Origin: a virus | Taxonomy: Duplodnaviria > Heunggongvirae > Uroviricota > Caudoviricetes | Virus record (IMG/VR): IMGVR_UViG_2751185958_000012 | Reading direction: 5' to 3' (one strand) | DNA: 6,929 nt | Part shown: piece after piece, positions 1,187-6,929 of the stretch | Layout: the number at the start of each line of letters is the position of its first letter | Numbering within the stretch: the stretch's first letter is position 1 | Notes under the pieces: model-generated | Databases searched by the model: none | What the model was told of the DNA's origin: nothing | What the model saw: only the letters and a program-made list of their open reading frames with translations | Translations under genes and position numbers: made by a program

Positions 1187-3465
<2,279 letters not shown>

Positions 3466-3471
3466 AGGGGG

Positions 3472-3494
3472 ACTAAACTATCACTATAGGGAGA
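3472..3494 (+). promoter_or_regulatory. T7-type single-subunit phage RNAP promoter (site B), predicted +1 G at 3489
   Basis: ACTAAACTATCACTATAGGGAGA versus T7 consensus TAATACGACTCACTATAGGGAGA. All 14 positions from -8 to +6 are identical (TCACTATAGGGAGA). Positions -12 to -9 read ACTA, versus CGAC in T7 and ACCC in T3. An exact 22-nt copy recurs at 4027..4048. Confidence 0.7.
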
Positions 3495-4027
3495 GACCCT
3501 AAGTCCCCCCGGCTTAATACAGCCACCGACCCACACATTCATTAAATCTCAGGCTTCCGGTAGCGGACCGATTGGAAACCATCCGCAATAAGCCTAGTGT
3601 TAAATCACCTTGGCCTGAGACCATTCCCTTTAACGTAGCAATCTCTCTCCTTTGACAGGCGGAGAACATCAGACCTCAGCGGAACTTCCGTCTATGAGAC
3701 CATCGGTGTGCGAGATTGTGAAGAACCAAGACATCATTGCTGAGGTCTGCCATCCATTGTGGACAGGCGGAAACTCAAAGAGGTTAGACCAGTAGTGGTG
3801 TCTGAGGTCGGACTTTGAGTCCTGACCAGCAGGCTGGAGGAGACCATGAGTTTATCTTGTTATGGATTGTGTTATCACAATTCCAATAAGAAGAACTTTA
3901 AGTCCAGCCTCCACTCCCGCCAACCCGAAGTAAACTATGGTCGCTATGATGTGGTCTCCATGCTTCGGGTCTTACTGGAAGTACTGAACACTTTCGCGTC
4001 AAGTTCTCCGAAGTTCATTCCTGTTTG
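3495..4027 (+). other. Untranslated, repeat- and stem-rich region downstream of promoters A and B; a possible phage-RNAP-made structured RNA or cis-acting replication/packaging region
   Basis: The only ORF is a doubtful 60-aa frame (3846..4028). TGAGACCAT/GAGACCAT occurs three times (3617, 3696, 3840) and GACAGGCGGA twice (3654, 3762). There is an 11-bp inverted repeat CAGACCTCAGC/GCTGAGGTCTG (3670..3680 / 3739..3749). A nested hairpin pairs AGGCTT...GCGGA..TGG-aaa-CCA-TCCGC...AAGCCT (3551..3595). ACTCAAAG/CTTTGAGT pair at 3773..3780 / 3813..3820. An AT-rich patch lies at 3846..3900. Confidence 0.3.
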
Positions 4028-4050
4028 ACTAAACTATCACTATAGGGACC
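4028..4050 (+). promoter_or_regulatory. T7-type single-subunit phage RNAP promoter (site C), predicted +1 G at 4045
   Basis: ACTAAACTATCACTATAGGGACC is identical to site B from -18 to +4. The predicted transcript 5' end can fold: GGACCA/TGGTCC plus TCTCGC/GCGAGA within 4046..4100. This resembles the 5' stem-loops of T7 late transcripts. The site lies 320 nt upstream of the AAGGAG-ATG (4365) of the Rha-like gene. Confidence 0.7.
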
Positions 4051-4364
4051 ATATCTCGCCTCTGACCTCCTGAGAGACGGCAAGCGAGAAACCGTGGTCC
4101 ACGCTAGCAAGCTAGCCACCAGCCTAAGGCAAGACAGCCTCTGGTCAGCCTGTGTGTTCTTTGGTCTCGTGACTTAAGTCTATCACCACACACGCTCGGA
4201 CATGCTGTCGAACCTTCATCTCTATGGTCATCGCAGACCACTAACCCCAATTACCTCAAGTCATTCTGTTTGCGTCCTGTTGCCTGCTGGTCTCCCTTTA
4301 CGTGGGGGCTTGAGTAGGTCAGTGGGGTGCGACTTCAGGGTGCAAACAAAAGGAGTACACGTAA

Positions 4365-5336
4365 ATGACCCAACAAGAAATCAGCGTCATTAACTGAACC
4401 GCCCCGGGAATCCTGGAGACTAAACTCCCTGAGAAAGAGGTAAACAGGATGACTAAAAATACTCGTTTTTCCCCCGAAGTCCGTCAGAGGGCGATTCGTA
4501 TGGTTCTGGAAAGTCAGGGCGAATATGACTCACAGTGGGCGGCAATTTGTTCCATTGCCCCAAAGATTGGCTGTACACCGGAGACTCTGCGTGTCTGGGT
4601 ACGCCAGCATGAGCGGGATACCGGAGGCGGTTCAAACCTCGACCAGCTTGTCTCCATGACCTCAATTGAAATTGCTGAGCTGACAGGCAAGGAGCACCGA
4701 AATGTCCTGCGTGATATTCGCAATATGGCTGAGGAGCTTAACGCGCTCAAAACTGAGCAGTGCTCAAAACTGAGCAGTCATATCGGGGTGACTAAAGATG
4801 TTTATCTAAACGCGCAGGGGAAACAGCAGCCTCTGTACCGTCTCGACCGTAAGCATACTTTTATTCTGGTCGCTGGCTATTCCGTTCACCTCCGCGCCAA
4901 GTGTTACGACCATATTCAGACGTTAGAGCGTCGAGTCCTTCAACTGGAAGACCAGAAGAAGCGAGCAGCCATTCAGTCTGCTAACCGTCGAGGCGTGACT
5001 TGGGGCGACTACTGCAAAACCTATGATCTACCCGCTCAGAAGCTAATGACCGCACTTCTCCAGCATCGTGGCCTCTTTCGTAAGAACCCAATCAGTAACG
5101 AGTGGTCTGTAAATCCGAAGTATTCCGACTGCTTCCGTATCATTAAGCCGTCTGACCAGAAGTTCTCAGCAGGTGGTTATAACTTTCGCTTCAACGCTAA
5201 GGGATTGGAGGTCTTCGGTAAGCCTGCGATAGTCGATAAACTGCGAGGCATCCTTATTGCCTTCACTGGCACCGACCAGCAGAAGCAAGAGCATCTCCTG
5301 AAGCAGGCCCAATCCGGCAAGCTGGAGGGACTCTAA
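4365..5336 (+). pseudogene. Rha-N / KilA-C (ANT) antirepressor-like phage regulatory gene, split after codon 10 by a 240-bp IS629 derivative
   Basis: AAGGAG (4350..4355) then ATG 4365 encodes MTQQEISVIN and runs into the TGA of the IS terminus. Removing 4395..4637 (the IS plus one AAC copy) restores an in-frame ORF: [40 protein letters not shown]... The N-terminal part is Rha-like ([16 protein letters not shown]). The C-terminal part ([29 protein letters not shown]...) resembles the KilA-C/ANT domain. Confidence 0.75.
4395..4634 (+). mobile_element. Internally deleted IS629 (IS3 family) derivative, 240 bp
   Basis: It starts TGAACCGCCCCGGGAATCCTGGAGACTAAACTCCCTGAGAAAGAGGTAAACAGGATGACTAAAAAT, which is the IS629 IRL and orfA start. 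It encodes [61 protein letters not shown], and similarity to OrfA stops there. Terminal 9-bp inverted repeats are TGAACCGCC (4395..4403) and GGCGGTTCA (4626..4634). It is flanked by direct AAC repeats (4392..4394 and 4635..4637). Confidence 0.85.
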
Positions 5337-5337
5337 G

Positions 5338-5529
5338 ATGATTGACCCGCGCACACCTGAGGGCCGCATGACTCTCCGTTACCGTGGCTACCGGACTGAA
5401 GTCCTCCTCAGAGAGCTTGGTCTAGACCCGGAAGATGAGACCCGCCAGCACCAATCACGAGACGAGCTGATAGTGCAACTGGTCGCTATGAAACTGCCGT
5501 CAGCTAGCAAGCTAGCGCCTAACCGTTAG
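5338..5529 (+). CDS. Hypothetical small protein, 63 aa
   Basis: GGAGG (5324..5328) lies 9 nt upstream of the ATG. The start sits 1 nt after the upstream stop (TAAgATG), so translational coupling is likely. I recognise no family. Confidence 0.5.
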   Translation: MIDPRTPEGRMTLRYRGYRTEVLLRELGLDPEDETRQHQSRDELIVQLVAMKLPSASKLAPNR

Positions 5530-5649: not shown

Positions 5650-6141
5650 ATGTTATTCAACAACAACGAATGGAAACTGTCAGTCACCGACATCGACCTT
5701 TACGCAAATACTTGCAAGCTGGACGGTCAGTCCTATCCGTTGTCGCTCGCTATCAAGACCCTCATTCCGGGCTATCTGTCAGGCCTGCCGTCTACCAGCC
5801 GCGAGGCAATGGAGTTACTGGAAGCTCTGGCTGAAGCTGGTGTAGCTATTGGCAACTTCTTCAGTAATGACCTGCTGACCGCCTACCAACGCCGCCAGAT
5901 GAATAAGCGTGTCGAGGCTGAGCGTATCGCTAAAGAGCTGGCGTCTCAGAAAGAGCGTACCCGCGAAATGTTCATGACCGAAGACGAATGGCAGAAAGAG
6001 CTACAGCGCCGCGAACAGGTCAAAGCTGAACGCCGGACATATGGTGAGAACCTCCGCAGTGCTACCCATTCCGCTGGTCGCTCACGTGCATCAATTATGG
6101 CTGACCTCGATAGTGGCGCTAACTGGATGGACAGCTTGTAA
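5650..6141 (+). CDS. Hypothetical protein, 163 aa, with a charged and probably coiled-coil C-terminal half
   Basis: The ORF is open from 5569, but AAAGGAGTAC sits 9 nt before ATG 5650 (MLFNNNEWKL...). This is the same AAAGGAGTAC context as the RBS at 4349. The segment RRQMNKRVEAERIAKELASQKERTREMFMTEDEWQKELQRREQVKAERR is strongly charged and helical in character. I recognise no family. Confidence 0.6.
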   Translation: MLFNNNEWKLSVTDIDLYANTCKLDGQSYPLSLAIKTLIPGYLSGLPSTSREAMELLEALAEAGVAIGNFFSNDLLTAYQRRQMNKRVEAERIAKELASQKERTREMFMTEDEWQKELQRREQVKAERRTYGENLRSATHSAGRSRASIMADLDSGANWMDSL

Positions 6142-6224: not shown

Positions 6225-6479
6225 ATGACCATGACAAAAGACGCTTTACAGTTTGGCATTGAGCCAGTTCGCATTACTGATACTGACAACATGCAGGTAA
6301 ACGAAGGTCTCCCGACTAACGCCGACCCTCAGGTCTATGCCTTCCAGTTAGCTAAGCTGGTGAAGACCATGCTCAATTCTGTACTTAAAGACGCTCAGGA
6401 TAACATTCCGTTCCCTGTAGAAGTCCTGCCGACCCGTAACAGCTTACCGACTCCAATCATTGCTCACACTCTGGCTGGG

Positions 6480-6482
<3 letters not shown>
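6225..6482 (+). pseudogene. Hypothetical island gene truncated at its 3' end by the IS911-like insertion (85 codons remain)
   Basis: AAGGAG (6209..6214) lies 10 nt before ATG 6225. The reading frame ends at TGA 6480..6482, which is the first three bases of the IS terminal repeat TGAAGTGG. The native C-terminus is therefore missing. Confidence 0.55.

Positions 6483-6929
<447 letters not shown>

Follow-up and report, generated by a model that had tools for sequence, protein, structure and literature searches.

What occupies the roughly 0.9 kb (positions 3495-4364) that lies between a DUF4145 gene and a Rha-like gene in IMG/VR virus record IMGVR_UViG_2751185958_000012, a stretch of 6,929 nt that is referred to here as the window? 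The window corresponds to Escherichia coli chromosome, running from actS through a tRNA-Gly(CCC) gene (979-1052) into an integrative island. An initial annotation, made from the letters alone, found in the gap no credible coding capacity, a dense collection of short repeats and long-range complementarities, and, as two equally acceptable explanations, either one or two structured RNAs made by a phage polymerase or arrays of protein-binding sites. We propose that the gap is a phage-switched control region of a small integrative island dependent on T7-like phages, and that it probably combines a structured non-coding RNA driven by phage-polymerase promoters with a leader hairpin on the mRNA of the downstream operon; any specific function of this RNA is put forward here only tentatively.

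Phage-type promoters and a candidate folded RNA

All three T7-type promoters found in the island sit in the gap on the + strand, and the motif CACTATAGGG occurs three times in the window, each time on this strand and within 3453-4047. Promoters B (GACTAAACTATCACTATAGGGA; 3471..3492, predicted +1 at 3489, initial transcript GGGAGAGACC) and C (GACTAAACTATCACTATAGGGA; 4027..4048, predicted +1 at 4045) are identical 22-mers that equal the promoter consensus of Kayfunavirus (K1F-like phages) and EcoDS1; the former lies upstream of the putative non-coding RNA and the latter upstream of an operon extending from the Rha-like gene to a capsid-fold gene. Promoter B matches the strongest Kayfunavirus promoters, shares 25 nt of identity with the EcoDS1 promoter upstream of gene 10A and 29/30 positions with EcoDS1 phiOR, and is one base off the Ro45Iw promoter ACTTAACTATCACTATAGGGA, which has been tested in vitro (PMC12272871). 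Promoters of this K1F class are found in hundreds of phage records, with 7-10 copies each, and are annotated as promoters in EcoDS1 and CR44b. Promoter A (AAACCCACACTATAGGGG; 3442..3463, + strand, predicted +1 at 3460) is a weak or diverged T7-type promoter for which the window version gives weak matches only; at its place relatives carry a cleaner ACCCTCACTATAGGGA promoter, of a class matching 39-kb T7-like phages of Cronobacter, Escherichia, Enterobacter and Shigella. Upstream of the RNA as well as upstream of the operon, relatives often set this ACCCTCACTATAGGGA class next to the K1F class in tandem, and the place of promoter C is taken in them by one or two promoters of differing classes. 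Remoter islands at the same tRNA contain true T7 (TAATACGACTCACTATAGGGAGA) and K11-type (AATTAGGGCACACTATAGGGAGA) promoters in gaps of their own; these gaps, of about 1 kb, lie at L159:4013-5111 and L160:4088-5109 (E. coli AR435, O39:NM F8704-2), and the T7 and K11-type promoters stand there in tandem. Promoter class thereby seems to set which helper each island answers to. A simple scan of 2700-4500 and of the right half of the island returned no sigma-70-like promoter on the + strand, and a simple scan of the gap and of the same right half returned no + strand intrinsic terminator, the interval between B and C included.

Folding of the two segments 3489-4044 and 4045-4364, a check that the initial annotation had proposed, bore it out for the first, which is stabler than its shuffles (z = -4.3), and not for the second (z = -1.0). 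Taken from one sequence, the evidence is thus weak, and the case must rest on relatives. There, the stems are backed by compensatory changes beyond controls, mostly in the second of four domains. RNAalifold applied to 27 sequences returned 111 pairs, 24 of them with changes on both sides. In a trimmed alignment (A2; window 3536-3913, 24 distinct rows), standard pairs fill 98% of cells, and 23 pairs have changed on both sides, compared with 9.1 +/- 1.3 in column shuffles (23 was reached in 0 of 500); the covariation score of 0.163 compares with 0.083 in shuffles (0 of 500) and with 0.02-0.045 when the partners are slid by 1-3 columns.

The predicted B transcript begins with a variable segment (3489..3535, + strand), poorly conserved and with many indels among the 27 variants. 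Domain 1 (3546..3621, + strand) is an extended hairpin from which two arms branch on the inside (3559-3594 and 3597-3608); its 21 pairs are 97-100% paired, and it contains the nested hairpin of the initial annotation. Its helix 28-32/48-52 shows two independent compensatory changes, from G-C to U-A in L007 and from G-C to A-U in L011. Domain 2 (3634..3723, + strand), a branched element formed by helices 6-11 and 28 pairs, is the best-supported structure: it comes in two versions with different bases at about one third of positions, and all 28 pairs are nevertheless standard in every sequence (100% paired), with 12 pairs that differ on both sides between the versions, all of them compensatory. 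Pair 145/170 is seen as U-A, A-U and G-C. G-U pairs make up around 18% of the cells in this domain, and in several pairs G-U gives way to G-C or A-U in some sequences. This restricts the fold to the + strand, the one transcribed from promoters A and B. Domain 3 (3725..3808, + strand) is 96-100% paired and nearly invariant, so that covariation is uninformative for it. Domain 4 (3832..3909, + strand) is A+T-rich (32% G+C at 3840-3899) and includes a 58-nt run that was invariant in the first seven relatives, as well as a palindromic hairpin (ATTGTG-TTAT-CACAAT, 3864-3883) whose arms have changed with pairing kept in the Rouxiella sequence L011 (ATTGTTT / AAACAAT) and whose loop is different in L161.

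The RNA does not resemble a known family. With Rfam 15, the only match at E <= 1 in the whole window is the tRNA-Gly, which is also all that ARAGORN reports; a scan of 3440-4400 at E <= 10 gave one chance match to a snoRNA (13.9 bits, against a gathering threshold of 45), and scans of five sister-island gaps gave no match. Complementarity to the helper does not stand out either, as the longest exact match to either strand of EcoDS1 is 12 nt, within the shuffle range of 11-17, which lends no support to an antisense action on the helper genome. Judged from these comparisons, 3536-3912 is a predicted conserved, four-domain folded non-coding RNA (core of ~375 nt) of no Rfam family. Its synthesis by a phage polymerase, as initially suggested, would fit the Kayfunavirus-consensus promoters, the outcome of the sigma-70 scan and the + strand fold with its compensatory changes. 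The count of one or two RNAs also appears about right, with the RNA cassette as a non-coding unit and 4045-4364 as the 5' leader of the Rha-operon mRNA.

Several observations weigh against this interpretation. The minus strand also folds better than its shuffles (z = -3.1); domains 1, 3 and 4 are nearly invariant, which leaves their folds predicted and not proven; and most compensatory pairs trace to one split between two recombining sequence types, so that this ancient divergence of domain 2, spread by recombination, reduces the independent events to few, about 3 to 5. The very high conservation of 3846-3912 would equally fit an element acting at the DNA level. The RNA cassette is missing from the sister islands L161 and L162, and a covariance model of domain 2 found no homologue in the T7/K11-promoter islands L159 and L160. 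The use of the promoters, the ends of the RNA and its abundance are inferred, no partner or target of the RNA was found, and a function in trans is a guess, as are the decoy, antitoxin-like and packaging-RNA roles that the initial annotation offered as examples.

A protein-coding explanation for the same DNA is extremely improbable. An open reading frame (ORF) of 60 codons (3846..4028, + strand) has a GGAGG 5 nt before its ATG, and its first nine codons (MSLSCYGLC) are kept in most variants, which might point to a 60-aa protein or to a short peptide made from this strong site. However, among the 27 distinct sequences the frame ends after 14, 15, 22, 24, 34, 42, 52, 60 or 66 codons as a result of independent 1-nt insertions and a 13-nt deletion, having been broken independently in at least four lineages, and the ATG is missing in L011 and L149. 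Variable columns are distributed 39/28/31 by codon position, without third-position excess, and no Pfam or PHROG match was obtained. We therefore judge that this ORF is not a gene. As it is the only one with a good Shine-Dalgarno (SD) sequence, and no gene is annotated here in the records examined, the gap has no credible coding capacity, in line with the initial annotation; the frame breaks and the lack of codon-position bias speak against its translation into a conserved protein.

The repeats and complementarities that first drew attention to the gap are all real, lying at or within 1 nt of the positions first given: GAGACCAT at 3617, 3696 and 3840, GACAGGCGGA at 3654 and 3762, CTGAGGTC at 3740 and 3802, and the complementary pairs ACTCAAAG (3773) with CTTTGAGT (3813) and GACCAGCAGGC (3824) with GCCTGCTGGTC (4282). 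Their accumulation was said to stand out, which holds in part when 1000 first-order Markov shuffles of 3495-4364 are used as reference: inverted 10-mers are in excess (9 vs 2.0 expected, P = 0.02), whereas the longest direct repeat (10 nt, P = 0.29), the repeated 9-mers (P = 0.29) and the longest inverted repeat (11 nt, P = 0.21) are ordinary. The 11-nt inverted repeat 3670-3680 / 3739-3749 does not survive comparison as a real pairing: 83% of cells are paired, most relatives break it without compensation (three positions are unpaired in 9-15 of 24 sequences), and the competing local stems are 100% kept. The ACTCAAAG / CTTTGAGT pairing is 97% kept, with an invariant sequence for which covariation is uninformative. 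Other repeats find their place within the folded domains. The first GAGACCAT copy is the 3' strand of domain 1, and the middle copy lies in a domain-2 stem. In both GACAGGCGGA copies GACA forms a hairpin loop and GGCGGA a 3' strand pairing with an upstream UCUCC or UCUGCC; the first copy is loop and 3' strand of the domain-2 hairpin 3646-3665, and the second plays the same part in domain 3, where it pairs with UCUGCC at 3746-3751. Short motifs of the TAAGTC type that the region shares with phage ends were also considered, and do not exceed chance.

Alternatively, these elements could be sites on DNA for island or phage proteins (the Rha-like protein, integrase/excisionase, terminase), or a packaging signal, as the second explanation of the initial annotation had it. 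The two copies of GACAGGCGGA, which carry the same A-to-G change in Rouxiella, the three copies of GAGACCAT and the palindrome TTGTG-N4-CACAA of domain 4 would be compatible with such an array, and the island must have a packaging signal somewhere. Nevertheless, we consider a DNA-site array highly improbable, given that the direct repeats do not exceed chance and are only partly kept as repeats (half the variants, those of type 2, are without the middle GAGACCAT copy), that one-strand, G-U-dependent pairing with compensation is unexpected for duplex DNA sites, and that the best packaging or pause candidate lies elsewhere, inside the integrase gene (see below).

The operon leader and its complementarity to the RNA

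Transcription from promoter C would yield an mRNA whose leader starts with a 5' stem-loop (4046..4100, + strand). This stem, already proposed in the initial annotation, appears in the minimum-free-energy fold, and the relatives that possess it show no sequence differences there, which makes covariation uninformative. The following part (4101..4257, + strand) is variable, being replaced or deleted in L005, L006, L007, L161 and L162. The leader ends with a hairpin (4260..4343, + strand) consisting of a stem of 4270-4287 with 4314-4332 and an inner hairpin of 4292-4295 with 4303-4306, located just 5' of the translation start of the Rha-like gene (SD sequence AGGAG with the start codon at 4365; 4351..4367, + strand); RefSeq relatives annotate a Rha family regulator from the equivalent ATG. 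This hairpin is the most widely shared part of the gap, since it is found in every island type examined, including those with T7/K11 promoters and those with differing first genes. In 14 variants, 97% of its cells are paired, compared with 36-50% when the partners are slid, and 11/18 stem pairs toggle between G-U and G-C or A-U.

One of the complementarities listed above connects the two units: 3824-3834 (arm 1) and 4282-4292 (arm 2) match perfectly over 11 nt, extendable to 15/18, and arm 2 lies within the leader hairpin. This raises the possibility that the RNA is a cis- or trans-acting antisense regulator of the Rha/Ant-like operon, with GACCAGCAGGC opening or closing the leader hairpin via GCCTGCTGGTC, in the manner of the P1 c4 and P4 CI RNAs. 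P1 c4 controls an ant gene, and the gene downstream of the gap is Rha/Ant-like; as in these systems, the non-coding RNA lies upstream of and co-oriented with an anti-repressor/Rha-type gene and is complementary to the downstream leader. Moreover, the sequence of arm 1 is similar to that of the 3' strand in the leader hairpin, for whose 5' strand it could compete. However, an 11-nt inverted match is ordinary for 870 nt of DNA, and the comparison with relatives speaks against the link. Arm 1 is invariant, whereas arm 2 is altered without compensation in the L005, L007, L015 and L161 types (GCCTGCCGTC) and in L011 (GCCTTCTGGTC), and in these variants its local hairpin partner still pairs. The arms also occur separately: L006 has arm 1 together with a leader devoid of arm 2, and L159 to L162 have arm 2 without arm 1. 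The antisense link is thus lost in several island types, with arm 2 belonging to a conserved local hairpin, and we reject it as the main explanation. Additionally, the c4 and CI RNAs are ~77-80 nt long and are excised by RNase P, and the conserved targets they pair with are located at the ribosome-binding site (RBS), while here the core spans ~375 nt, the match lies 70 nt from the RBS, the pairing is not conserved and the Rfam C4 family gives no match. Altogether, antisense regulation of this kind is very unlikely.

As no terminator was found between B and C, B transcripts should run into the operon, and the whole region could be read as nothing more than the long 5' untranslated region, subject to processing, of one transcript running from B through the operon, with hairpins that act as RNase III or stability elements and no separate role for an RNA. 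T7 mRNAs bear 5' stem-loops and RNase III hairpins, and the long, G-U-rich leader hairpin would be at home among them. Yet a full second promoter, C, renders the upstream 556 nt needless as a leader, and the features of the RNA go beyond what stability hairpins need: a branched, multi-domain fold, invariant loops and a domain 2 that has been rewritten and still refolds. The cassette is moreover gained and lost as a unit between the promoter clusters. A mere leader is on these grounds an unlikely description of the region, and we favor a separate RNA gene followed by a distinct mRNA leader.

An exchangeable cassette or a possible replication origin

The gap is far from unconserved in homologous islands. 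At least 80% of 3495-4364 is held by 114 complete E. coli genomes at 87-95% identity, and 377 genomes hold part of it; none of the E. coli matches listed has an annotated feature beneath it. The region also occurs in Citrobacter (L038), in one Enterobacter record, in Rouxiella (L011) and in 23 metagenome contigs. A scan of contigs with an overly short 17-base pattern gave 120 matches, nearly all due to chance, among which L028 and L038 are genuine. Block 3536-4026 is retained while the gene on its left alternates between RAZR (the DUF4145 gene; see below) and an unrelated 202-aa protein, and while the gene on its right alternates between Rha and unrelated proteins of 161-240 aa. The gap variants are mosaics of each other, and in four metagenome variants the next promoter comes 95 nt earlier. 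Conservation has its limits in L161 and L162, sister islands whose capsid proteins are 87-92% identical: both are without domains 1-3 and keep the promoter(s) and the leader, and L161 still has the A+T-rich palindrome element. L159 and L160 share a look-alike hairpin (CAUCC...GGCGGGAUG) in their gaps; in L160, the place equivalent to the RNA cassette is taken by an A+T-rich array of 196 bp (47 bp x 4). A search with the domain 2 covariance model against a phage right end gave no significant + strand match. The missing cassettes and the outcome of the covariance search in L159 and L160 imply that the RNA is not essential to the island family. The slot between the promoter clusters thus always consists of several hundred non-coding bases whose content is exchangeable, and, as far as these comparisons go, the putative RNA cassette is accessory and module-like.

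The main rival to a trans-acting RNA is a cis-acting, helper-dependent origin of the T7 type, in which the folded transcript would serve as primer or R-loop former and the phage replisome would copy the excised island. No replication gene was recognized in the island, so that the replisome would have to be borrowed, and all phage promoters of the island are gathered here, in tandem like phi1.1A and phi1.1B of the T7 primary origin, with an A+T-rich element downstream. This element is the sole A+T-rich dip and the most conserved stretch, and it is kept in L161 without domains 1-3. In the T7-promoter sister islands the long array of L160 occupies that place, and the motifs ACTTAAAG and AATTAAAGA in the L159 and L160 gaps are similar to parts of the left end of T7 (positions 262-290 and 409-498), with local alignment scores above all shuffles (41 for L160, against a null maximum of 34). 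An analogy can also be drawn with ColE1 RNA II, of ~550 nt, which is likewise a multi-domain RNA of a few hundred nucleotides ending near an A+T-rich or conserved element; the 556 nt from B to the next landmark, C, are about its size.

These likenesses have clear limits. The gap has the phage RNA polymerase (RNAP) promoters of a T7-type origin (A and B in tandem, and C) and lacks an A+T-rich region immediately downstream: in T7 this region directly follows phi1.1B, whereas here it lies ~350 nt off, the folded RNA comes between, and the first 350 nt after B have 45-57% G+C. T7 origins require no folded RNA, and an origin would thus leave the fold unexplained. TRF found no tandem repeat or iteron array in the window, and L162 is without both module 1 and an obvious A+T-rich element. 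Similarity to phages is limited to the promoters, with none beyond them at the DNA level in blastn searches against 50,697 phage records or in sensitive local alignments to full EcoDS1 and T7. RNA II, for its part, shows no homology, is made by another polymerase and, unlike the present region, has an antisense RNA I, for which no comparable promoter was found here; a priming role would be hypothetical. Taken together, we regard an origin as rather unlikely.

Since the RNA cassette is dispensable for the family and is swapped like cargo, we favor an accessory, trans-acting RNA. Under this proposal the gap would comprise two units. In the first, promoters A and B would be silent in the uninfected cell and would fire once a K1F-like phage (or, in relatives, a phage of the second class) supplies its polymerase, driving a self-contained non-coding RNA gene with the four-domain core at 3536-3912. 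The RNA would be produced in large amounts early in infection and may act as an accessory factor in the conflict between satellite and helper, our preferred guess being a protein-binding or sponge RNA or an assembly cofactor; a cis-regulatory role on the Rha leader is not favored. In the second unit, promoter C would start the mRNA of the operon, which encodes the Rha-like protein followed by two small proteins and the HK97-fold capsid protein, with the 5' stem first in its leader and the long G-U-rich hairpin last, just before the RBS. There, this hairpin might control processing or translation, in a manner comparable to the RNase III hairpins found in T7 mRNAs.

A bolder version would make the RNA essential in an undescribed satellite of virulent T7-like phages. 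Promoters for several polymerases would sense infection, and the RNA would license either replication, as a primer or R-loop at the A+T-rich element, or packaging, as a pRNA-like cofactor directing the portal and terminase of the helper to the small HK97 capsid that the island encodes, with the pause signal in the integrase gene marking the packaging site. We consider this scenario improbable.

The island as a putative satellite of T7-like phages

To the left of the gap, the island encodes an integrase (1187-2794) and the DUF4145 protein (2787-3446), which matches the PADLOC model PD-T7-4 with E = 2.7e-102; its gene overlaps the end of the integrase frame by 8 nt, an arrangement also reported for homologues of PD-T7-4. 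PD-T7-4 has since been renamed RAZR, a HEPN RNase that cuts single-stranded RNA when triggered by phage proteins, including the T3 and T7 portals (PMC13017515). The unrelated 202-aa protein that fills this slot in sister islands makes it look like a defense hotspot. To the right, the Rha-like protein matches Pfam Phage_pRha (E = 3.5e-18), with the anti-repressor Ant as best PHROG match, and is followed by a 63-aa ORF (5338-5529) and a 163-aa ORF (5650-6141), located between the Rha and capsid genes and without informative homologues, and by the first 85 codons of a 329-aa protein. The 163-aa protein shows a faint DUF6971 among its precomputed Pfam matches and, judged from its position, could be a scaffold or decoration protein.

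The 329-aa gene (6225-6482 in the window, truncated; complete at L008:5155-6144) is predicted to encode an HK97-fold protein. An earlier AlphaFold model built from a shallow alignment was unusable (pLDDT 44); the one obtained from a 36-sequence alignment reached pLDDT 80.9 and gave 214 PDB matches at E <= 0.001, and all those among the matches listed are HK97-fold capsids or encapsulins. A profile search of PDB sequences gave no match. Distant homologues of this protein bear C-terminal Big_2 or Ig-like domains, which are frequent in phage structural proteins. If the prediction holds, the island encodes a capsid-like protein of its own. In L008, a hairpin (GGTCAGAC...GTCTGGCC) followed by TTTATTTTG is found directly 3' of the capsid-fold gene (L008:6160-6200) and recalls the T-phi terminator after T7 gene 10; it was missed by the simple terminator scan because its loop probably exceeds the 3-8 nt limit of the scan.

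In the window, the capsid-fold gene is cut at 6483 by the end of a full IS629 copy (6483-6929, minus strand). The Rha gene is also interrupted: 30 nt inside it, at 4395-4633, lies a 239-bp miniature derivative of IS629 with the ends TGAACCGCC and GGCGGTTCA and an AAC target duplication on both sides, which places the N-terminus of IS629 OrfA in frame with Rha, as a single fusion ORF (4449-5336). The identical insertion is present in IMG/VR contig L014. Owing to these two lesions the copy in the window strain is probably defunct and no longer mobile, though its gap is intact. In the intact relative L008 the island measures 6.4 kb and is bounded by a 17-bp attL/attR repeat of the tRNA 3' end. 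Other locations exist, since the L004 island lies in ynfF and L161 begins with the tmRNA 3' end, indicating that the island family also integrates at ssrA. The whole island is found as separate Logan contigs (L012, L161, L162 and L163; 6.4-7.8 kb), which end at the att repeats and are collinear with the chromosome; they are for this reason uninformative about circular or excised forms, either way.

A further motif, CTCCCTATCTGTATT at 1693-1707 in the integrase gene, resembles the helper-type concatemer-junction signal, or class II pause signal of T7 RNAP. Signals of the same class are CTCTATCTGTATAAC in EcoDS1, annotated as a junction, and CCCTATCTGTTACAG in T7. The form TATCTGTAT occurs in all K1F-promoter islands, including the diverged Rouxiella one (L008:859, L011:3727), and in L160, an island with T7 promoters, the corresponding position (L160:2986) carries CTCTATCTGTTAG. 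Based on these resemblances, the integrase-internal motif (CCCTATCTGTAT) may be a packaging or pause signal hidden in coding sequence. The corresponding signal ATCTGT(T) was not found within the gap.

These features suggest that the island is most likely an undescribed satellite of T7-like phages and not a plain defense island: at the sequence level it has an integrase, a 17-bp att repeat, one HK97-fold gene only and promoters of the helper type. With P4, PICI, capsid-forming PICI, PLE and PICMI (PMC10803314), it shares the layout of a small integrase-bearing island at a tRNA with a defense gene beside the integrase and a capsid-fold gene, and, as for PLE and PICMI, its helper is presumably a virulent phage. 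It differs from them in its size of only ~6.4 kb, in having a single HK97-fold gene, with no portal, terminase or protease recognized among its proteins, and in a right operon placed behind tandem classes of helper-RNAP promoters with no sigma-70-like promoter in the scan. The gene set that defines a capsid-forming PICI is accordingly incomplete here. The RNA, in turn, can be compared with phi29 pRNA, GOLLD, ROOL and HEARO, large structured RNAs of phages or mobile elements whose functions are linked to viruses or still unassigned; in contrast to these, it comes from other hosts, has no Rfam match and stands behind single-subunit-RNAP promoters on a chromosomal island. In our comparisons, no Rfam family, phage homologue or published description matches the RNA or the island type, and our literature search found no account of a T7-type satellite, of chromosomal phage-polymerase promoters or of any satellite of T7-like coliphages.

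If the proposal is correct, the gap would define a new family of large structured RNAs without Rfam relatives, present in over 100 sequenced E. coli genomes, O26 and O103 Shiga toxin-producing strains among them, and in other Enterobacterales, and its promoter, RNA and leader modules may find use as parts for phage-triggered expression. It would also reveal an unrecognized class of islands that place their cargo under the promoters of the invading phage's RNAP. The tandem promoter classes would then constitute a very direct sensor of infection, joined in the same small island to a known anti-T7 defense gene (RAZR) and to a capsid gene.

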